Assembly (NCBI GenBank): GCA_044070495.1
Contig: JBIPSI010000056.1
Span: forward strand, 1 to 15,457
Direction: 5' to 3'
DNA length: 15,457 nucleotides
From: Spirulina sp.
GTDB lineage: Bacteria; Cyanobacteriota; Cyanobacteriia; Phormidesmidales; Phormidesmidaceae
The position numbers and the translations under genes are program-made. Positions 123-15,457 of this stretch are shown one piece after another. The notes beneath the pieces were generated by a model that was not told where the DNA came from, made no database searches, and saw only the letters and a list, made by a program, of their open reading frames with translations. Positions within the stretch are counted from its first letter, which is position 1. The number at the start of each line of letters is the position of its first letter.

Positions 123-164
123 GTTTTGTCAGTCAACCAGCTGATTGCCTGACACATCTCCAAA

Positions 165-249
165 GTAGGTTGGGTGCAGCGAAGCGGAACCCAACACGCG
201 CCGAGGATTTCGGGCTTGTTGGGTTCTGCTATCGCGCCACCCAACCTAC
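165..249. repeat. REP/REPIN-like palindromic doublet (cyanobacterial GTAGGTTGGGT...ACCCAAC family)
   Basis: GTAGGTTGGGTGCAGCGAAGCGGAACCCAACA (165-196) and an inverted copy TGTTGGGTTCTGCTATCGCGCCACCCAACCTAC (217-249). GTAG/CTAC termini; each half is itself a hairpin. Confidence 0.8.
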
Positions 250-316
250 GAGAAATCAATGCTTTTCGGCGTTATGTCGGTCAGCAAGGTTGGTTGTTGG
301 CGTAGTCAATGGGGCT

Positions 317-8211: not shown

Positions 8212-9354
8212 TTACCTTCCCAGGGCCACGGCGGAGGGCATGGCCACGGTTTCATAGAGACGCTCTAGGAGCGATAGATTGGCATTGAGGGTATAGCGGA
8301 ATACCACGCGCTCGCGGGCTTTGCGGCCTAGGAGTTGGGCCACTTCGGGATGGTCGCGCAGCAGGGGCAGAATGGTTTGCAACTGCACCGCCACCCGTTG
8401 GGGGTCTAGCACAATGCCCGCCCCATGGGCCAAGACTTCCCCATCGGCCCCGGCATCGGTGGCCACGCAGGCGGTACCGCAGGCCATCGCTTCCAGCAAG
8501 GAGAGGGACAAGCCTTCCACGAAGGAGGGCAGGATAAAGCCATCGGCCCCCCGCAGCAGGTCAATGCGCCGCTGCACATCGGCGACATAGCCTAGCCACA
8601 GAATATTGGCGTCATCGTAAAACAGCTTGAGGGAGGACTCGAGCGGCCCACTACCCATAATCACCAGCTTGCAGGTTGGCCCCATATCCGCTAGCCGCCA
8701 GCCCTTCAGCAGCGATTCCACGTTTTTTTCTGGGGAAAGGCGACCCTGGTAGACAAACAGCCGTTCCGCCCCCAACTCCGCCTTCGCCGAAGATGGGCCA
8801 GGGGTATAGCGCTGGGTATCCACACCGTTGGGAATCACCTCTAGGCGATCATCGGGCACCCCCAATTTGCTCAGCAGGTCGCGCTGGAGATCGGAGAACA
8901 CGATCACCCGGTCGTAGTTGGCCAAACAGGGGGCATAGAGCTGGTAGGTGAGGTGTTGGGTGCCAGAGGTAATGCTGCGCACCTTGCGGTCGAAGGCGGG
9001 GTGAAAGGTGGCGACCAGGGGCAGTCCCAATTCTGCACAGATTTCTGGCAACCGAAAGTCCAGGGGGGAGAGGGTCAAGGACGCATGGACAATATCGGGT
9101 TTAAGCTGCCGCAGGGCATTGGTCAACAGCTTCCGGGACCGCAGGGAGGGAATAGTGAGAATCTGCGACTTAAACAAAAAGGGGAGGGACACCTCAGCGG
9201 CTTCAGGATGGGCCTCGGCCTCGACCCCATGGGGCTGGGCAAAGTGCAAAAACGTGACGCGGTAGCCCCGTTCTAGGAGGGCATTGGTAATTTCTCGACT
9301 GTAGGTGACGTTGCCGCAGAAGGGGGATTTCTTGCCAAGCCACGCAATATGCAT
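8212..9354 (-). CDS. dgdA: Glycosyltransferase family 4, digalactosyldiacylglycerol synthase (DgdA/Ycf82-like)
   Basis: N-terminus MHIAWLGKKSPFCGNVTYSREITNALL matches my recollection of cyanobacterial DgdA; GT4 motifs IPNGVD, GRLSPEKN and EGLSLSLLEAMACG. Confidence 0.85.
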   Translation of the reverse strand: MHIAWLGKKSPFCGNVTYSREITNALLERGYRVTFLHFAQPHGVEAEAHPEAAEVSLPFLFKSQILTIPSLRSRKLLTNALRQLKPDIVHASLTLSPLDFRLPEICAELGLPLVATFHPAFDRKVRSITSGTQHLTYQLYAPCLANYDRVIVFSDLQRDLLSKLGVPDDRLEVIPNGVDTQRYTPGPSSAKAELGAERLFVYQGRLSPEKNVESLLKGWRLADMGPTCKLVIMGSGPLESSLKLFYDDANILWLGYVADVQRRIDLLRGADGFILPSFVEGLSLSLLEAMACGTACVATDAGADGEVLAHGAGIVLDPQRVAVQLQTILPLLRDHPEVAQLLGRKARERVVFRYTLNANLSLLERLYETVAMPSAVALGR

Positions 9355-9450
9355 TCACGGTTCGGGGGATAGGGTGACGGAGAAGGGACAGGTACGCGGG
9401 GACAGACCCATCCCGATAGGCGAGAGGTGAAGCACGCCCGTAACCGGAGC

Positions 9451-9483
9451 CTACCTCAATGCTGTATCGGCAATATACCAGGT
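9451..9483 (-). pseudogene. Orphaned 3' end of a host gene, probably the MFS transporter that usually precedes dgdA
   Basis: Minus strand reads ACC TGG TAT ATT GCC GAT ACA GCA TTG AGG TAG (TWYIADTALR*) and ends 96 nt before the dgdA ATG. Identification rests on recalled deoC-recO-MFS-dgdA synteny and a recalled TWYI-like C-terminus. Confidence 0.5.
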
Positions 9484-9563
9484 TCTGAAGCGTAGAGCCC
9501 TTCTAGAGATCATTGCTACCCACCCAATGATCGGGTGAGGGCTCGTAGCGAAAGAACCTGGTA
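9476..9563. repeat. 88-bp interrupted inverted repeat at the element boundary
   Basis: Nested stems TACCAGGTTCT/AGAACCTGGTA, GAGCCCT/AGGGCTC and GATCATTG/CAATGATC separated by internal loops. Confidence 0.85.
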
Positions 9564-9569
9564 ACGCGC

Positions 9570-9596
9570 AAAAAAACGGCCCCAGGGCGGGGCCGT
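9570..9596 (-). terminator. Intrinsic terminator of the recombinase gene
   Basis: Minus strand ACGGCCCC-GCCCT-GGGGCCGT followed by a T-run, 20 nt after the TAG. Confidence 0.85.
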
Positions 9597-9616
9597 CGTG
9601 GTGTGACGGGGTGGGG

Positions 9617-10810
9617 CTAGAGGCTGGCCAGTAGCTCTCGATAGAGATCCTTCACCAGCTTGCTGGCCACCTTGGAAACGGCCTGGGGGTGAGGCATGGG
9701 TGGCAGGGCTTCATAATAGGCGCGATGCTGAGCCAGGTACTTGGGGATCTGCATGTTGGGGCGACTCCGCAAGATAACCACCATCATTTTGATGTGAAGG
9801 TAGATCGCCGTTCGGGCATAGCGGGGGCCTGCGGCTACCTCTGTCTTTACCTGCCCGCTCTGGTACAGGGTGGTGCCGTTGCCCAGGGCTAGTCGAAAGG
9901 CCCCCAGGGAACGATCACGGCGATTCATGCGGCCACTTTTGGAGGGCACACGGGCGCGGATCGGCTTGCCATCGTCTCCCAGGAATTGATCGAAAGGAAC
10001 GATGCGGCTTAGGATACTCGCCCTGGTATTGGAGGCAAAGCCAAACCTATCAAACACGGTGTGATAGGGGGCAAACTCTGGAGACTCCAGCAGCTCGGAG
10101 ATCCTGACCTCTAAGTCATACTGACGCCGTTCTAGTTCGCAGATTTGAGAGGCCAGGGTTTTAGACATAATCGACACCCCTGCTCCGACCGAGCTTCCTT
10201 GTTTGGAGGCCCAGGCTTTACGGTAGCGTCCCTCTCCGGTGGCGATGTAGTTCCACAGAGTAGGCGGCTCTGGGGCCATCCACTTGCGAGACTGTTTGGG
10301 GCGCTTTCCGCCTGATGAGACGCAAACCTCTGGCCATTCCCTGGATAGGAGCTGCCATAGGCGGCGCTGATAGTTCCCCGTCATTCGGCTTAGGAACTGG
10401 TGCTGTAGGACGGCGTCGCGCAGATCCTCGGCATAGTCGCTGAGGAATGCGCTGGGGCGTCCTAGGTTCTCGGCTCCATAGAGGGCCAAGAATGCCGCGT
10501 CGTATCGGTCACTTTTGCTCATCACCCCGTGATAGGTCTGTAGAGCCTTCACCCGCTGGGGGTTCACTCGGTAGACCGCTCGATCATTGGCCTTCAGGAT
10601 ATCGATCCACACCTTGGAGTAGTCGCCGGTGGGCTCCAGAATGAATACCTCTCCCATGGTTAACAGGGAGGCGATTCCGTCGATGGTGGGACACAGGCCG
10701 ATGGGCTGATAGGAGCCTGAGAACTTGCGGTAGTCGGAGGGCATAGCCTCGGAATCTACCACGCAACACGTGATCGACGTTTTGGAAACGTCAATACCTA
10801 CAATCTTCAT
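9617..10810 (-). CDS. IS110-family (DEDD) recombinase/transposase, 397 aa
   Basis: ATG at 10810 (MKIVGIDVSK). RuvC-like DEDD residues in GIDVSK, LEPTG and KSDRYDA; VNPQRVK; coiled-coil middle; C-terminal Tnp domain with YQSG, the position of the catalytic Ser. Confidence 0.88.
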   Translation of the reverse strand: MKIVGIDVSKTSITCCVVDSEAMPSDYRKFSGSYQPIGLCPTIDGIASLLTMGEVFILEPTGDYSKVWIDILKANDRAVYRVNPQRVKALQTYHGVMSKSDRYDAAFLALYGAENLGRPSAFLSDYAEDLRDAVLQHQFLSRMTGNYQRRLWQLLSREWPEVCVSSGGKRPKQSRKWMAPEPPTLWNYIATGEGRYRKAWASKQGSSVGAGVSIMSKTLASQICELERRQYDLEVRISELLESPEFAPYHTVFDRFGFASNTRASILSRIVPFDQFLGDDGKPIRARVPSKSGRMNRRDRSLGAFRLALGNGTTLYQSGQVKTEVAAGPRYARTAIYLHIKMMVVILRSRPNMQIPKYLAQHRAYYEALPPMPHPQAVSKVASKLVKDLYRELLASL

Positions 10811-10898
10811 GAGTTGAATCACCCTTATCTCGGTTCGCAAAGCCCCAGGGGTCAAGCCACCTGTCTGGCACGTCATTCTAAGAACGGGATCCTCTAGG

Positions 10899-10967
10899 GC
10901 TAGGGGCCGTCTAGCAACGTTGCCAAAGCTGAAAAGCTAAGGGCCGTCTAGCAACGTTCCGAAAGCT
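10899..10967. repeat. Tandem direct repeat, 2 copies, 37-nt period
   Basis: GCTAGGGGCCGTCTAGCAACGTTGCCAAAGCT (10899-10930) vs GCTAAGGGCCGTCTAGCAACGTTCCGAAAGCT (10936-10967); 29/32 identical. Confidence 0.9.
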
Positions 10968-11042
10968 TTTGCAGCAACCTGGTATGAGCTCCGACCCCTA
11001 GGCGGTTTGGAGGACAGAAGGATTGCAGCCCCTCTATCCGTG

Positions 11043-11114
11043 CTAAGCCATCCCGCGACTACTCCAAGGGGAGTAGTTTCGGCCCTTGGCAGGGGCCATC
11101 GTCAGGCGGGTTAG
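11043..11114 (-). ncRNA. Hammerhead ribozyme, type I
   Basis: Minus strand: CUAA CCCGC-CUGACGA-U-GGCCC[CUGCCAA]GGGCC-GAAA-CUACUCC[CCUU]GGAGUAG-UC^-GCGGG[AUGGC]UUAG. Full catalytic core and GUC cleavage triplet; loop II GCCA is complementary to UGGC in the stem I bulge. Confidence 0.9.
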
Positions 11115-11332
11115 TAGTCGGAGCCGTCGCTCTCTTCTATGTGGGGCTCTCCGGTGTCGAGGGTGAGGCCTTCTGCGAGGGCCTGGAGACGTTGAACGAT
11201 GGCGCTACGGGCATCCATGGCTTCCATGGAGATAAACATCTCGTCATTGAGAAGGCTGGCAATGTCTATCAGCTCTCGCAGGGCGTTCATGGCCCAGGGT
11301 TGGATGGTGGGGGTTTTATTCGCCATGGTCAT
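11111..11332 (-). CDS. Phage hypothetical protein (73 aa)
   Basis: Overlaps the end of the upstream ORF, GGAG RBS, helical acidic sequence; last small ORF before the hammerhead. Confidence 0.7.
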   Translation of the reverse strand: MTMANKTPTIQPWAMNALRELIDIASLLNDEMFISMEAMDARSAIVQRLQALAEGLTLDTGEPHIEESDGSDY

Positions 11333-11519
11333 CGGCTCCGGTGGCGAGGGGGTAACGGGCGTTGAGGGCGACTTCTTGCTCTAGACGCGCTTTGTTGAGG
11401 GCCTGGGCTTGGTCGCGAAGATAGGTCAGGTCGGGCAAGCTCATGGAGCGCATTTCTTTGAGGATTTCGCTCGTCACTCGGTCTTTGGGGGTTACGTAGT
11501 GGGCGTTTCCGGTGTTCAT
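11316..11519 (-). CDS. Phage hypothetical protein (67 aa)
   Basis: ATG at 11519 overlaps the upstream TGA (ATGA); RBS GGAGG. Confidence 0.72.
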   Translation of the reverse strand: MNTGNAHYVTPKDRVTSEILKEMRSMSLPDLTYLRDQAQALNKARLEQEVALNARYPLATGADDHGE

Positions 11520-11845
11520 TCCCAGGTTTCCTCCATGCGGAATTTCATTTTGATGGCCTCTGCTGATCCGTTGGATTGGCATAGGCCTCGCCAAAATAGG
11601 CCGGCGTAGGAGATGGATGAAAAGCGCCCGACCTCTTTGCCGGTGGCGCGGTTCACCACTCGATAGATTTTCTGTGGCAGGGGCGGGGGCGTTTTGGTTT
11701 CTAGGCGCTGGGCCAGCAAGCTCACCAGCTCACGTTTGCGAAGGTGTTTCCCCACCCCGTGGGCGTTGGCCCATTGGATGCCATGCCGCTCGGCGATCTG
11801 CTGTAGGCGGGGTAGGCGTAGGGTCATTAGCTCTTCTTGGGTCAT
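11516..11845 (-). CDS. Protein with N-terminal Rho_N/HeH-like nucleic-acid-binding motif
   Basis: LMTLRLPRLQQIAERHGI...HLRKRELVSLL fits the Rho-N/HeH pattern; TAATG overlap with the upstream gene; RBS GGAGG. Confidence 0.7.
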   Translation of the reverse strand: MTQEELMTLRLPRLQQIAERHGIQWANAHGVGKHLRKRELVSLLAQRLETKTPPPLPQKIYRVVNRATGKEVGRFSSISYAGLFWRGLCQSNGSAEAIKMKFRMEETWE

Positions 11846-12231
11846 TAGTCGTCGCCTCCGTGGTGAACGTCGTCGAACAGTCCGTCTAGACGGTTTTCGA
11901 GGTCTTTTACCTGGCTCTCTAGGTCGCCGACCCGAATAGCCAAGCGGCTTAGGGTGTCTTCGTGGCTGATGTATCGCTTCTTCAGTTCGGCGATTTGATG
12001 GGAGTGGAGATCGGTCGGCACTGCGAGGATTTCTTGCAGATCCTCTAGAACCTCCAGCAGTTCCACCAGGTCTAGGGTGATGGCACTGAAGGGGGGATCT
12101 GTCAGATTGACGGCGGAAAAACTGATCTGACGATTCTCTGTGTCGGGTGGATCTATGACAACGGCTACTGGAACCTCGGTTACGTGCCGCCCATAGTCAA
12201 ACCCAATGGTCGTTACAACGGCTTTTTGCAT
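11845..12231 (-). CDS. Phage hypothetical protein with C-terminal coiled coil; first gene of the leftward operon
   Basis: RBS AGGAGA; heptad pattern LSRLAIRVGDLESQVKDLENRLDGL. Confidence 0.78.
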   Translation of the reverse strand: MQKAVVTTIGFDYGRHVTEVPVAVVIDPPDTENRQISFSAVNLTDPPFSAITLDLVELLEVLEDLQEILAVPTDLHSHQIAELKKRYISHEDTLSRLAIRVGDLESQVKDLENRLDGLFDDVHHGGDD

Positions 12232-12399
12232 AGCTTCTCCTAAGAAAATCCGGGGGGCGTTCCCCGGTCACTACGTTTGACGCTAGTCAGTCACTTTGGC
12301 CTGGGCGGAATTGCACCGCCTGCATGAACGCCCACACACCCCTAGGGCCAGCCAGGAAAACGGGGGGAGTGAAGCCCCGTTGTGGAGTTGGTTATCCTG

Positions 12400-12490
12400 A
12401 GGGCTATTGTATATGCAATAGATGTAGATGTATAGTCAATGCATGATGAGTTTATCTATGCAGATGGCGAATCATTGCCTATACAATGGA
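12400..12490. promoter_or_regulatory. AT-rich divergent promoter/operator region
   Basis: Plus strand TTGTAT-N18-TATAGT (12407-12436) and TACAAT (12482-12487); minus strand TTGACT and TACAAT; inverted ATTGTATA/TATACAAT and TGTATAG/CTATACA; tandem TAGATG. Confidence 0.55.
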
Positions 12491-12514
12491 GCTTAAATTC
12501 AATGCCCTACGAAG

Positions 12515-12703
12515 ATGCCCAAAGCCAAACATGCGAAATGGGGAGAACCCAAGGACTCTCAGCTTCCGCCCCAGCGGATGACGCGCACGGGATTGAATCT
12601 CCTCAAGGCCAAGGCCCAGGAGGTGGGAAGCGTGTCAGAGCTTCTGGAGTTGATAGCGCGGTCGGAGTTGCCTTCCTCTTTGGGGGAATCGTCGCCCAGT
12701 TGA
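12515..12703 (+). CDS. Ribbon-helix-helix (CopG-like) transcriptional regulator
   Basis: RMTRTGLNLLKAKAQEVG-SVSELLELIAR fits the strand-helix-G-S-helix pattern of small cyanobacterial RHH proteins. Confidence 0.7.
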   Translation: MPKAKHAKWGEPKDSQLPPQRMTRTGLNLLKAKAQEVGSVSELLELIARSELPSSLGESSPS

Positions 12704-12834
12704 TCCAAGATGCAGAGGATCGGCGGGCTGAGGTGGTGGACTGCATCGACTGGTATCAGCGGGAATTGGAGAAGTGTGATCGTCGCCTTGAGTCGCTGAA
12801 GACTCTCGCCCAAAGCATCCAATCTGCTGAGTAA
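12700..12834 (+). CDS. Short coiled-coil protein, coupled to or frameshift-fused with the RHH gene
   Basis: TTG at 12700 overlaps the RHH TGA; IQDAEDRRAEVVDCIDWYQRELEKCDRRLESLKTLAQSIQ is amphipathic; a terminator follows. Start is uncertain because the frame is open from 12439. Confidence 0.55.
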   Translation: MIQDAEDRRAEVVDCIDWYQRELEKCDRRLESLKTLAQSIQSAE

Positions 12835-12844
12835 ATACCCACAA

Positions 12845-12884
12845 CAAACCCCCAGAGGTGATCGCATCTCTGGGGGTTTGCTTT
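12845..12884. terminator. Bidirectional intrinsic terminator between convergent genes
   Basis: CAAACCCCCAGAGGTG-ATCG-CATCTCTGGGGGTTTG, 16-bp stem with one G-T pair. Confidence 0.8.
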
Positions 12885-12897
12885 GGCGTGGTGGTGG

Positions 12898-13116
12898 TTA
12901 GCGGGGGCGGCGCTTCTTCCGCTCGTCGGCCTTAGCTGTGGCGGCGTCGCCCTTCCTGATGATGGACACCCACTGCATTAACGGAGAAAAGCCCGTGCGA
13001 GTCCAAGCGAAATAGGTTGTCTTCTTCTCTCCCAAGACATAAAGGTGATCGTGAGCGGCTGACATGAGGAGCTGCGTCAAGAAGACACCCCAAAAAACAT
13101 AGTCGAACCATTTCAT
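12898..13116 (-). CDS. Small putative membrane protein
   Basis: ATG at 13116; hydrophobic N-terminus WFDYVFWGVFLTQLLMSAA; basic tail RKKRRPR; ends next to the terminator. Confidence 0.5.
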   Translation of the reverse strand: MKWFDYVFWGVFLTQLLMSAAHDHLYVLGEKKTTYFAWTRTGFSPLMQWVSIIRKGDAATAKADERKKRRPR

Positions 13117-13155
13117 AACCAGCAACCAAACTCAGCAAATTTAAAGTGCCCAGCC

Positions 13156-13392
13156 ATGACGCAACTTAACCTCTTAGACCTAATCGACCAGCCAGAGTAC
13201 CGAGGTGATGATGTGGATCATCTCGTAGATGCCATCTTGGCGGAACTGGAGGCCCACGGCCTGAGCCAGGATGAGCAACGGGCCTTGGCGGTGCGGCTCA
13301 ATGCGCATCAGGTGCTCAGCATGGTGCGGCGGTGGCCAGCACCAGCCCGAAACTACTTTCTGTCCTTGATTGTGGAAGGTTTAGCCGACTAA
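13156..13392 (+). CDS. Phage hypothetical protein (78 aa)
   Basis: Clean ATG-TAA ORF with helical composition and N-terminal QLNLL. Confidence 0.7.
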   Translation: MTQLNLLDLIDQPEYRGDDVDHLVDAILAELEAHGLSQDEQRALAVRLNAHQVLSMVRRWPAPARNYFLSLIVEGLAD

Positions 13393-13480
13393 GACCCAAA
13401 TCAAATACAGTAGCGACCCAGCAAACGCCGCAAAGCTCAACAATGCACCCACCAGCAAAAGCCACTCTTCTCTTCCAATC

Positions 13481-14497
13481 ATGTCTACATGCCCACATCT
13501 TTTCCCCAGCCTAGACCACCCCAGCGGCTACTATTGCCGCCTAGATTGCGGGGGCAACTGTCACAACGAGTTTTTTGAAAAAAATGATATTTCGTTTTCA
13601 GAAAACAACGAAATATCGGCGGTTTCGGGGGTGCCCCTCCTGGGCTTCAAGACCAGGAGGAACCCACACGAGCAGGGGCAACTGTCACACGTTGGACGAA
13701 CACCCGCCGTTACCCTAAAACGGCCATGGGCCTACGCGATTACCCACTTGGGAAAGGACGTTGAGAACAGAACCTGGGCGCTACCGAGAGAGGCCGGGAC
13801 GGTAATCGCAATCCACGCAGGGAAGGGATGGGACGCAGACGGCGCGGAATGGATCAGGTCTAGCGGCCTGGGAGATGTGCCGCCGGAAAGCGAACACCCA
13901 GCAGGGGCCATCGTTGCGCTGGCCACCTTTCGGGGCAACACTCAGACGCATAACTCGCCATGGTTCTTTGGCCCCTGGGGGTGGGTACTGTCAGACGTTC
14001 AGCCCATCAAGCCGATCTACTGTCGGGGGAACCAAGGTCTATGGTTTTGGGATGGCGGAGAGGTGGAGCTATTGGGAAACGCGTCCGACAGCTTGGAACG
14101 TCGCGGTTCTAGCTCTGTCATCGATGGGACGGAAACCCATTATTTCCCTATGGAAAACGTGTCCGACAGCTTGAAACCTCGTTGCATCGATGAGGCTGAT
14201 CCAGGGGATGAGGACGACCAGCTCTATGAAATGTTTTGCCGCTCTGGCCAGTTTTGGCATGAGGCGGGGCCATACCCCAGCAAGGGACGGACGTACTACC
14301 GCTACCGCTGGGGCCATGGCCATGCGATTGATGGCGTCCGCCACATTCCGGGCGGTTCCATGCTGCGGGGGCTGGCGAGGGAACGGGCGGCCATCATTGA
14401 ACGGGCGGTGTATGTGGATTTTCGGCCCCATGCTGAGATTTTGGCGGTGATTGATGGATGGCGACGGCTGACGCCACGACCTAAAATCAGGCTGTGA
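13481..14497 (+). CDS. ASCH-domain protein with Cys/His-rich N-terminus and an extra C-terminal domain
   Basis: ASCH signature TLKRPWAYAITHLGKDVENRTW...IAIHAG...GAIVALA...W.LSDV..IKPIYCRGNQGLW. Confidence 0.85.
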   Translation: MSTCPHLFPSLDHPSGYYCRLDCGGNCHNEFFEKNDISFSENNEISAVSGVPLLGFKTRRNPHEQGQLSHVGRTPAVTLKRPWAYAITHLGKDVENRTWALPREAGTVIAIHAGKGWDADGAEWIRSSGLGDVPPESEHPAGAIVALATFRGNTQTHNSPWFFGPWGWVLSDVQPIKPIYCRGNQGLWFWDGGEVELLGNASDSLERRGSSSVIDGTETHYFPMENVSDSLKPRCIDEADPGDEDDQLYEMFCRSGQFWHEAGPYPSKGRTYYRYRWGHGHAIDGVRHIPGGSMLRGLARERAAIIERAVYVDFRPHAEILAVIDGWRRLTPRPKIRL

Positions 14498-14509
14498 CTA
14501 CTACTCAGC

Positions 14510-14548
14510 GAACCCTCGGCGGCCAAGGCCCTGGGGGTTTTGTTTTGG
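14510..14548. terminator. Probable terminator between the ASCH and FHA genes
   Basis: Imperfect GC hairpin GAACCCTCGGCGGCC-AA-GGCCCTGGGGGTTT followed by TGTTTT. Confidence 0.55.
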
Positions 14549-14549
14549 G

Positions 14550-15122
14550 TTAGTGGATGACGACGGCGGCCACCGCAACGGCGGCGACGGCGGCCAGCAG
14601 CACCAGCAGCAGGAATCGGGCTGTTTTTCCCCAGAAGGTGGTGCCGGTGGTGAACCACTGGACAAACAGGTAGAGGGCGTCGTCGTAGCGGTCGCCGTCG
14701 AGGGGAGCTGGGGGAATGGTGGCCAGGGGCGTGAGGCTTACGACGGTGGCGGGGCCGTCGTCGTTGATGGTGTCGTTCTCATCCTCAACAACTCGGATCG
14801 GCGGGTTGCTGCTGAGGTGGATTTTGTCTCCGATGGTGAGGGAGTGCCAGTTATAGGGGGTGAGGGCTTGGTCGTTTAACCAGGTGCCCCCGGTGGATTT
14901 GAGATCCTGAATGGCCCAGCGGTCGGCGGCGTAGCTGTAGGTGATGGCCAGATGGCGACGACTAACGGTCTTGACGGCCAAGGTTAGGTCTAACTCTGGG
15001 GAGCGTCCGACCAGGAACTCGTCAGAGTCGGCGTCTGGTCGGGGGATGGTCAGGCGATGGGTGTGATCCGCCAATGACGGGTCGGGGAACTCAGGCGGAA
15101 AGTAGAGCGATAGGGTTGGCAC
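14550..15122 (-). CDS. FHA-domain protein with C-terminal transmembrane helix
   Basis: Motifs VGR, VSRRH, IQDLKSTGGTWLN and LTIGDKI; TM segment FLLLVLLAAVAAVAVAAVVI; GTG at 15122 behind RBS AGGAGGAGG. Confidence 0.88.
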   Translation of the reverse strand: MPTLSLYFPPEFPDPSLADHTHRLTIPRPDADSDEFLVGRSPELDLTLAVKTVSRRHLAITYSYAADRWAIQDLKSTGGTWLNDQALTPYNWHSLTIGDKIHLSSNPPIRVVEDENDTINDDGPATVVSLTPLATIPPAPLDGDRYDDALYLFVQWFTTGTTFWGKTARFLLLVLLAAVAAVAVAAVVIH

Positions 15123-15243
15123 TCTGACTACCTCCTCCTTGGCGACGGCCTGGGAATTTGTTGCGGTCGCCAGCAACCAGGGCGAGGCCCAGTAGCAGAG
15201 CCAGTAGCAGGGCGATCCATGGTTTACGGGGGCTGCGATTCAT
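15091..15243 (-). CDS. Small membrane-anchored or secreted peptide (50 aa)
   Basis: ATG at 15243 overlaps the upstream TGA (ATGA); basic n-region, hydrophobic WIALLLALLLGLALVA, then PGRRQGGGS. Confidence 0.6.
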   Translation of the reverse strand: MNRSPRKPWIALLLALLLGLALVAGDRNKFPGRRQGGGSQSANPIALLSA

Positions 15244-15446
15244 GGGATTAGGTCTGACAAGGACAGGGGCGGGGCATAGGGCGGGGGCTGAGGGCCTTCG
15301 ATCCACTGTTGGGCGGCTGCATCCCACTGAGGGGAAGCCATTCCGGGGGGCGGGTCGGCTGCGGTGATTTGCCAGCCGGGGGGCGGCGTGGCGTCGGGTT
15401 CGCAGTTGCCGCCGAAGGTTAGGGTGTCGGTGATGAGGCTAGGCAT
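15240..15446 (-). CDS. Phage tail-fibre-assembly-like small protein
   Basis: T..PP...SPQWDAAAQQWIE resembles the Pro/Trp motif of tail-fibre assembly (Tfa-like) proteins; lies in a convergent operon. Confidence 0.5.
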   Translation of the reverse strand: MPSLITDTLTFGGNCEPDATPPPGWQITAADPPPGMASPQWDAAAQQWIEGPQPPPYAPPLSLSDLIP

Positions 15447-15457
15447 ATCTGAACAGT

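Follow-up and report, generated by a model that had tools for sequence, protein, structure and literature searches.

Organization of the locus

The window analysed in this study is a stretch of 15,457 bp that makes up the complete contig C56 of a cyanobacterial assembly of 5.3 Mb (genome G000). A leftward operon reads into a hammerhead-like ribozyme motif, which is followed by a structured non-coding leader, an IS110-family recombinase gene, a terminator-like hairpin, an inverted repeat and host DNA (Table 1). A first-pass annotation of this DNA had described a hammerhead, a structured spacer of ~250 nt, an intact DEDD+Ser gene, a terminator, an 88-bp repeat and host DNA, and all of these were recovered at or near the places where it had put them. 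We consider it probable that a larger mobile element uses this segment as its integration module, with a guide RNA freed by the hammerhead and the IS110-family recombinase inserting the whole element. The operon has homologous counterparts in a second copy of the element on contig C50 of the same assembly and in the relative G005, and the outermost 9 bp of the inverted repeat (9476-9484) are host DNA.

Table 1. Features of the recombinase end of the element in the window (positions on contig C56)
Feature	Position	Strand	Description
Promoter-like site	12434-12406		Heads the leftward operon; nearest one to the leader
Leftward operon	11111..12231	-	Four small open reading frames (ORFs) without assigned function; reads into the hammerhead
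TAA stop of last operon ORF	11113-11111		Inside the 5' strand of the hammerhead motif
Hammerhead-like motif, stem I open	11043..11114	-	From sequence, fold, covariation and covariance model R1
Stem I	11114-11106 with 11056-11043		CUAA-CCCGC with GCGGG-(AUGGC)-UUAG
Core CUGACGA	11105-11099	-	
Stem II	11097-11081	-	5 bp
GAAA	11080-11077	-	
Stem III	11077-11058	-	8 bp
GUC	11059-11057		Predicted cut between 11057 and 11056
Bridge-RNA-like leader	10811..11056	-	246 nt, non-coding; 5' untranslated region of the recombinase mRNA
Guide word g1, AUACCAGGUU	10985-10976	-	Host half-site + core; loop 1, 5' side
Guide word g2a	10966-10953	-	Near element end + core
Guide word g2b	10927-10916	-	Far host half-site + core
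Guide word g3	10880-10869	-	Far element end
GCGAAC	10838-10833	-	Loop 2, 3' side; carries the complement of the core
Recombinase ATG	10810-10808	-	
IS110-family DEDD/Ser recombinase gene	9617..10810	-	397 aa; NF051857, transpos_IS110_2
Intrinsic-terminator-like hairpin with T run	9575..9597	-	20 nt past the stop codon
Inverted repeat, 88 bp	9476..9563		Outer arm 9476-9501, inner arm 9538-9563
Outer arm of the inverted repeat	9476-9501		Host TACCAG + core GTT + element end
Crossover core GTT	9482-9484	+	Host up to 9484, element from 9485
Element copy A, part within the window	9485..15457		Runs past the contig end; ends on C50 at 22842-20723

The recombinase has an N-terminal RuvC-like DEDD domain, with a match to PF01548 (E 1.5e-15), and over its full length it matched NF051857 (267.6 bits against a cut-off of 180). 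An alignment of 11 homologues with 27-63% identity shows conservation of D7 (D or E at this position), E59, D101 and D104, and S318, which lies in YQSG, is invariant in it. A profile of the recombinase alignment matched the solved transposases of ISCro4 (7.5e-12) and IS621 (4.3e-10), with a weak alignment of the C-terminal part, the putative Tnp domain with the serine, to the solved chains. Homologues, of which those with names belong to Nodosilinea and Leptolyngbyaceae records, occur at 1-2 per genome in 10 of the 61 genomes of relatives (G000 counted), and those of the same genus have the same neighbour genes. Across the phylum, NF051857 exceeded its cut-off in 39 of 401 genomes and in none of 14 control genomes; at E <= 1e-30 there were 1-4 matches per genome among the 45 genomes with any. 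The first-pass annotation had held that a single copy would support an integrase; the copy number is low. A scan of the genome contigs with the single recombinase protein returned only two distant loci, and no relative of the recombinase was found in 50,697 records of deposited phage genomes or, with the patterns used, in IMG/VR.

A conserved hammerhead linked to the recombinase gene

All the core elements of a hammerhead (CUGANGA, GAAA, A15.1-U16.1 and the cleavage-site H) and the three helices are present in the motif, the fold of the region has a z of -3.57, and covariance model R1 scored the window motif at 69.6 bits. Covariation was tested on 34 distinct aligned relatives, in which pairs were counted on a named structure, with 500 shuffles and slid structures as controls. 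Pairing cells reached 92.3%, versus 69.4% in the shuffles, none of which was as high (0/500), and 34-49% in the slid controls; double-change cells numbered 129, versus 38.5 in the shuffles. Compensatory changes were seen in 10 of the 13 pairs of stems II and III, stem III of the second copy in G000 differs by four compensatory pairs, and 18 of the 34 sequences carry an additional U where the core meets stem II. No Rfam model matched anywhere in the window at its gathering threshold; among the hammerhead models the best was Hammerhead_3 with 11.1 bits (E 7.4, threshold 48.5), and at E up to 10 the window gave chance-level rows only. RAGATH-1-hammerhead scored ~28 bits in two relatives, versus a threshold of 56.3. 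The hammerhead is real as a conserved structure, and self-cleavage is predicted from it.

The strict hammerhead pattern was scanned across the 401 genomes of the phylum, with the reversed pattern as a control. It gave 32 matches in 23 genomes, and the control gave none. The recombinase gene lies 200-320 nt downstream on the same strand in 29 of the 30 strict-pattern loci returned; the thirtieth is interrupted by a contig end, so that all 29 testable loci carry the gene. Among the ~24 full-length family genes with no strict match, 20 were taken for a covariance-model search, which was used in place of a variant-hammerhead regular expression that matched 3 of the 20, and an upstream hammerhead was found in 18 of them. 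The distance from cleavage site to start codon is constant (~220-320 nt), and the association spans clades that are only 27-35% identical. Judging from these sequences, the hammerhead is part of the recombinase module in the sampled cyanobacterial genomes.

The pattern also occurs apart from the gene. Among the matches listed, 80 loci being examined in each case, the gene follows 4 of 96 strict-pattern instances in metagenome contigs, the other 92 being without it, and 0 of 108 in IMG/VR. These instances, and the few family genes that have no hammerhead, favour an alternative in which the hammerhead makes no guide. It would then either serve only to uncouple recombinase expression from the upstream operon, or to tune it, or be a phage-type ribozyme kept by inheritance without a guide role. 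We regard this alternative as improbable. It is opposed by the constant cleavage-to-start distance (~220-320 nt), by the persistence of the association across the divergent clades, and by the first five bases past the cut, GCGGG, which form the 5' stem of the leader with CCGCC in 3-5 of 5 sequences, depending on the pair.

Several variants of the motif were seen. Up to six hammerheads of this pattern are clustered within 4.5 kb on an IMG/VR contig (L326) and on a metagenome contig (L147 and L148), with no IS110-type gene nearby. One recombinase gene (L246, G263:C64) is preceded by two hammerheads ~320 nt apart. The copy at L232 (G308:C3), with an extra A in the hammerhead core (CUGAAUGA) and a TAG in the recombinase frame, looks like a decaying element. 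At L229 and L230 (G169 and G118), UUAGC stands in place of the 5' strand of stem I, which would shorten stem I to 2 bp; either the boundary of an element or a partner strand acting in trans could be located there.

A leader that tracks the attachment sites

The consensus fold of the leader, predicted with RNAalifold from five close, related leaders, consists of a 5' stem, loop 1 and loop 2, with 46 pairs, 16 of which have compensatory changes. The first guide word, g1, equals the host half-site plus the core in 5 of 5 close elements. It is a variable word of 9-12 nt that differs in each of them (TACCAGGTT, TATACCGAT, TATAAATGTT, GTAACCCGTT and AGCTTAATCC). The longest word in common between a leader and its own flank is 10-12 nt, versus 4-7 nt for the flanks of the other elements, and the own-flank length was reached by only 0-2 of 1000 shuffles. 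In register, 6-7 of 8 positions on the 3' side of loop 1 are complementary to the core and the other host half-site, and the duplicated 3' guide of the window clade is complementary to the core and the near element end at 7 and 8 of 8. In loop 2, the 5' side tracks the far element end in three variants (AGAAU, AGAGC and AGAAC), and AAC, AAC, AAC, AAU and GAU on the 3' side correspond to the cores GTT, GTT, GTT, ATT and ATC. In the G224 clade (~35% identical), where the core is TGAA, order and polarity are canonical. Both copies have a left host flank that corresponds to AGGGUGAA, AGAGUGAA corresponds to the right element end, and the right junction agrees with the right target guide.

The stretch from 11110 to 10810 yielded no promoter-like site. 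The guide RNA lies 1.5 kb from the near end of the element and at least 6 kb from the far end. The data support the leader as a bridge-RNA-like guide programmed for the attachment sites of the larger element itself, with RNA binding and recombination as predicted activities. That the leader is a programmable guide had been proposed in the first-pass annotation, and the match of g1 to host half-site and core in all five elements, together with empty sites for three elements, agrees with it; its further proposal that the ribozyme may set the 5' end of this RNA fits a hammerhead that is suitably placed for a predicted cut after C11057. The inner arm of the inverted repeat (9563-9538) is carried by the element and repeats host half-site, core and element end in inverted form; in 5 of 5 elements it changes along with the guide. 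It could serve as a decoy or an inversion substrate, or be a trace of a polarity flip.

The inserted unit is the whole element

The window from 9620 to 15457 is collinear with C50:5877-1, which belongs to the second copy (copy B); the neighbour proteins of copies A and B are 80-95% identical, the recombinases only 57%. The middle of copy A is unassembled, because the ends of C56 and C50 match only each other. Copy A thus runs from 9485 to the contig end and, past the unassembled middle, to C50:20723, with at least 8.1 kb assembled. This extent follows from empty sites in relatives. In G075 (89% identity), window 8628-9484 runs straight into C50:20722 and downward, the two overlapping by 3 nt, and the intact host site CGGCAATATACCAGGTTGC(C/T)AC is present in all five relatives inspected (G075, G027, G005, G019 and G070). 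The near junction of copy A reads ..ATACCAG-GTT-CTGAAGCG.. and the far junction ..AGAATAAC-GTT-GCCACC..; only GTT is common to the joined ends and the host site. The site is the 3' end of the host gene C50:19251-20753, a conserved membrane-protein-like gene whose last codons are replaced by a short element-encoded tail.

For copy B, the far end was predicted from guide complementarity on contig C47. The prediction was borne out by synteny, since C47:2161-3187 adjoins C50:6010 onward in 5 of 6 relatives, and the empty site in G075 reads as predicted (..GGCTAAAG-AAT-CGGTATAAGG..). The target predicted for the G005 element (AGCTTA-ATC-TAAACGAC) is intact on contig C13 of G000 (GGCTTAGCTTAATCTAAACGACAGG). 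In the three elements with empty sites, joined ends and host site have 3-4 bp in common. For the host flank of the G028 element, a search of the other 52 genomes of the genus gave no counterpart. An unoccupied counterpart of the G012 element site was seen at G000:C6 ~147629-147905 (TTTAACCTGTCC against TAACCCGTTC), in an alignment too diverged to place the crossover.

Complete relatives measure ~11.9 kb (G005), 14.7 kb (G012) and 19.0 kb (G224). Across the phylum the gene is always the last one in a larger repeat or element, as in the two 19-kb copies of G224, in G169 (~13 kb), in G430 (at least 4.3 kb), in G005 and in G012. The inserted unit is the whole large element and not a 1.5-kb piece. 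According to the first-pass annotation, the recombinase belongs to a larger element as its fixed last gene and is no independent insertion sequence; the empty sites, which lack the whole element, and the homologues, with their upstream hammerheads (29/30 and 18/20 loci) and terminal position, are in accord with this.

The competing view would be an ordinary IS110-family insertion sequence of ~1.5 kb (9475-10985) inside a prophage. Direct repeats of TACCAGGTT around the gene (~10984-10976 and 9563-9555), taken in the first-pass annotation as possible insertion-sequence ends, speak for it; they are in fact the guide and its target, and the upstream one lies within the conserved RNA fold. The genome has no second 1.5-kb unit, the sole relative being the 57%-identical gene in the same place in copy B; in relatives the gene keeps the same neighbours; and the empty sites lack the whole element, not the 1.5-kb piece. 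Neither a large element without exactly 9485-10985 nor that unit alone elsewhere was found in the genomes searched. We hold this view to be very improbable, and a simple insertion sequence was rejected because the gene always stands at the end of a repeat of at least 4.3 kb or an element of 11.9-19 kb.

Two dispersed repeats were also seen in this genome. The one at window 141-289 is ~150 nt long and recurs at 75-99% identity in dozens of places on most contigs; it resembles a miniature inverted-repeat transposable element or dispersed repeat and is the probable cause of many contig breaks. The second, of ~90 nt or more (gtgcaaatctacggga...ATCGGTATA...cttcggcttttcaaacg), has dozens of copies on many contigs (e.g. 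C50:12255-12345) and holds the 9-mer read by the copy B guide; copy B is not inserted there.

Proposed mechanism and the points that weigh against it

We propose that a transcript of the leftward operon would read through the hammerhead, which would cut itself after C11057 and leave an RNA that begins at G11056 with a 5'-OH. This freed RNA would be the bridge-RNA-like guide, continuous with the mRNA of the recombinase. Its loop words would pair with the host target (ATACCAG-GTT-GCCA) and with the joined element ends (..AGAATAAC-GTT-CTGAAG..), and the DEDD/Ser recombinase would insert the whole element at the 3-bp core and may excise it too. The guide being kilobases from the far end, the ribozyme would replace a junction promoter in setting the 5' end of the guide, and the cut would separate the guide from the operon mRNA. 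After the cut, the freed GCGGG in the 5' stem of the leader would compete with stem I of the hammerhead.

Several observations weigh against this reading. Pfam PF02371 gave no match to the window recombinase at E 0.01. The covariance model found no hammerhead at 2 of the 20 family genes searched with it, nor at G057. The consensus fold is based on five related sequences, and the element ends are similar among relatives. For covariation between loop words and sites, the first target guide gives strong evidence and the other guides positional evidence only: scored as a word free to lie at any place in the leader, the right-target guide did no better than chance (92-272 of 1000 shuffles), and its support is therefore positional. 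The site polarity relative to the gene is flipped in the window clade compared with the G224 clade, and the proposal does not account for the inner arm of the inverted repeat. Finally, a tyrosine recombinase gene stands beside the far junction in close relatives, and the G012 element is flanked by a 10-bp direct repeat that would also suit a tyrosine integrase.

The tyrosine recombinase and the nature of the element

The first-pass annotation had stated that no tyrosine or serine integrase is present at the recombinase end of the element; this holds for that end only, and at the far end of copy A a 186-aa tyrosine recombinase is encoded (C50 20764-21324), homologous to PF00589-positive genes of the relatives. 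This protein could be the true integrase, which would leave excision, inversion at the 88-bp palindrome or exclusion of a second copy to the IS110-type enzyme and its RNA. Such a division of labour would suit the position of the gene, which in copy A, copy B, G005 and G012 is 40-150 nt away from the far junction, the direct repeat around the G012 element, and the element-borne inverted mimic of the left junction, which the guide could read. We judge it unlikely. The proteins have 186-213 aa, with the catalytic domain (PF00589) alone matched; the gene stands mid-element in G224, G279, G371 and G273; and the guide words change with the host target. A tyrosine integrase normally requires 6-8 bp of identical overlap, and here the joined ends and the host site have only 3-4 bp in common in the three empty-site elements, G012 being ambiguous. 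The mid-element positions and the 3-4-bp identity argue against the far-end tyrosine recombinase as the integrase; it could act as a resolvase or an invertase instead. We infer that catalysis is carried out by the IS110-type enzyme and not by the tyrosine recombinase.

The part of the element in the window encodes an FHA protein, an ASCH-like protein (phrog_3193) and small ORFs without assigned function. The ASCH-like middle of this 338-aa neighbour protein matches phage genes and has little diagnostic value. The relatives encode a tail-fibre-like Peptidase_S74 protein, an F5/8 type C protein, HU and an HNH endonuclease, and also PHROG families without assigned function. Neither Pfam nor PHROGs recognised a capsid, portal or terminase, whether in the window or in three complete relatives. 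A conserved 274-aa protein of the element was modelled with a predicted local distance difference test score (pLDDT) of 78.7; a Foldseek search of this model against the PDB gave nothing better than E 0.043, and a wide VIA-align search gave Z of 6.2 or less, on the helical N-terminus only, with no clear fold match. The first-pass annotation had concluded that a phage domesticated an RNA-guided recombinase as its integrase. The guide tracks the sites of the element, and this part of the claim is supported; the phage part finds no support in the structural genes searched for.

Comparison with known systems

One of the closest comparisons is IS621, as described by Durrant et al. 2024 (PMC11208160). 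Both systems have a DEDD/Ser recombinase and an RNA just upstream of its gene, with a 5' stem and two internal loops, and in both the RNA specifies target and donor, as judged from sequence for the window family. In IS621 the left guides pair with the bottom strand and the right guides with the top strand, each including the core; likewise, the left guides predicted here have the sequence of the top strand, to which the right guides are complementary, with the core included. The guide of IS621 starts at a sigma-70 promoter that is rebuilt across the right-end/left-end (RE-LE) junction of a 1-2 kb element, whereas the window element has a hammerhead before the RNA and no promoter-like site in the leader, and in its family the RNA is separated from the far end by 12-19 kb of cargo. 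The window family also differs from IS621 in its core of 3-4 nt (GTT, ATT, ATC or TGAA) instead of a CT dinucleotide, in a first guide of 9-12 nt and, in the window clade, in a duplicated 3' guide and a near-end palindrome.

A wider reading, which we put forward tentatively and think doubtful, is that the NF051857 subfamily swapped the junction promoter for a hammerhead able to cut the guide from any read-through transcript, which would have opened the way to 12-19 kb of cargo and made the enzyme the programmable integrase of cyanobacterial virus-like elements. In the window clade, the duplicated 3' guide and the junction mimic might then switch one RNA between the empty site and the integrated junction, a choice between insertion and excision.

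Bridge recombinases are under development for programmable insertion of large DNA. If the proposed mechanism is true, this family would be a natural bridge recombinase that already moves 12-19 kb, with a longer first guide word, a core of 3-4 nt and a self-trimming guide RNA, a device that engineers add by hand. It would also give a concrete job to bacterial hammerheads, for which few natural roles are known, and show a route from an insertion-sequence enzyme to the integrase of a larger element.

Hammerhead ribozymes were reportedly described in phage and bacterial genomes by Perreault et al. in 2011. The window motif has the same conserved core and three-helix junction as these. Its sequence pattern is frequent in viral and metagenome contigs, mostly with no such recombinase after it, whereas the window motif forms the head of a guide RNA that precedes the gene. 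Hepatitis delta virus (HDV)-like ribozymes stand at the 5' end of the RNAs of R2 and other retrotransposons. As there, a self-cleaving RNA (predicted in our case) would release the functional RNA of a mobile element from a read-through transcript; the ribozyme class differs, the R2 elements are eukaryotic retroelements, and the RNA is a template there and a guide here.

The Nf (MDA) filamentous prophages of Neisseria carry a terminal IS110-family transposase that inserts at dRS3 repeats (PMC7058167, citing Kawai 2005). Like the window element, they are phage-sized (~8 kb), with a terminal IS110-family gene taken as the integrase and a short core. They differ in host and in element type, and no ribozyme or guide RNA is described for them in the accessible part of that source; they target multi-copy repeats, whereas the window family uses single-copy sites, here the 3' end of a host gene. 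The literature covered, which excludes subscription journals, gave no natural hammerhead linked to an IS110 guide, and one 2026 preprint treats both topics separately. The use of an IS110 recombinase as a phage integrase is already known from the Neisseria Nf prophages, and what looks new in the present element is the ribozyme-headed guide together with a cargo of 12-19 kb.

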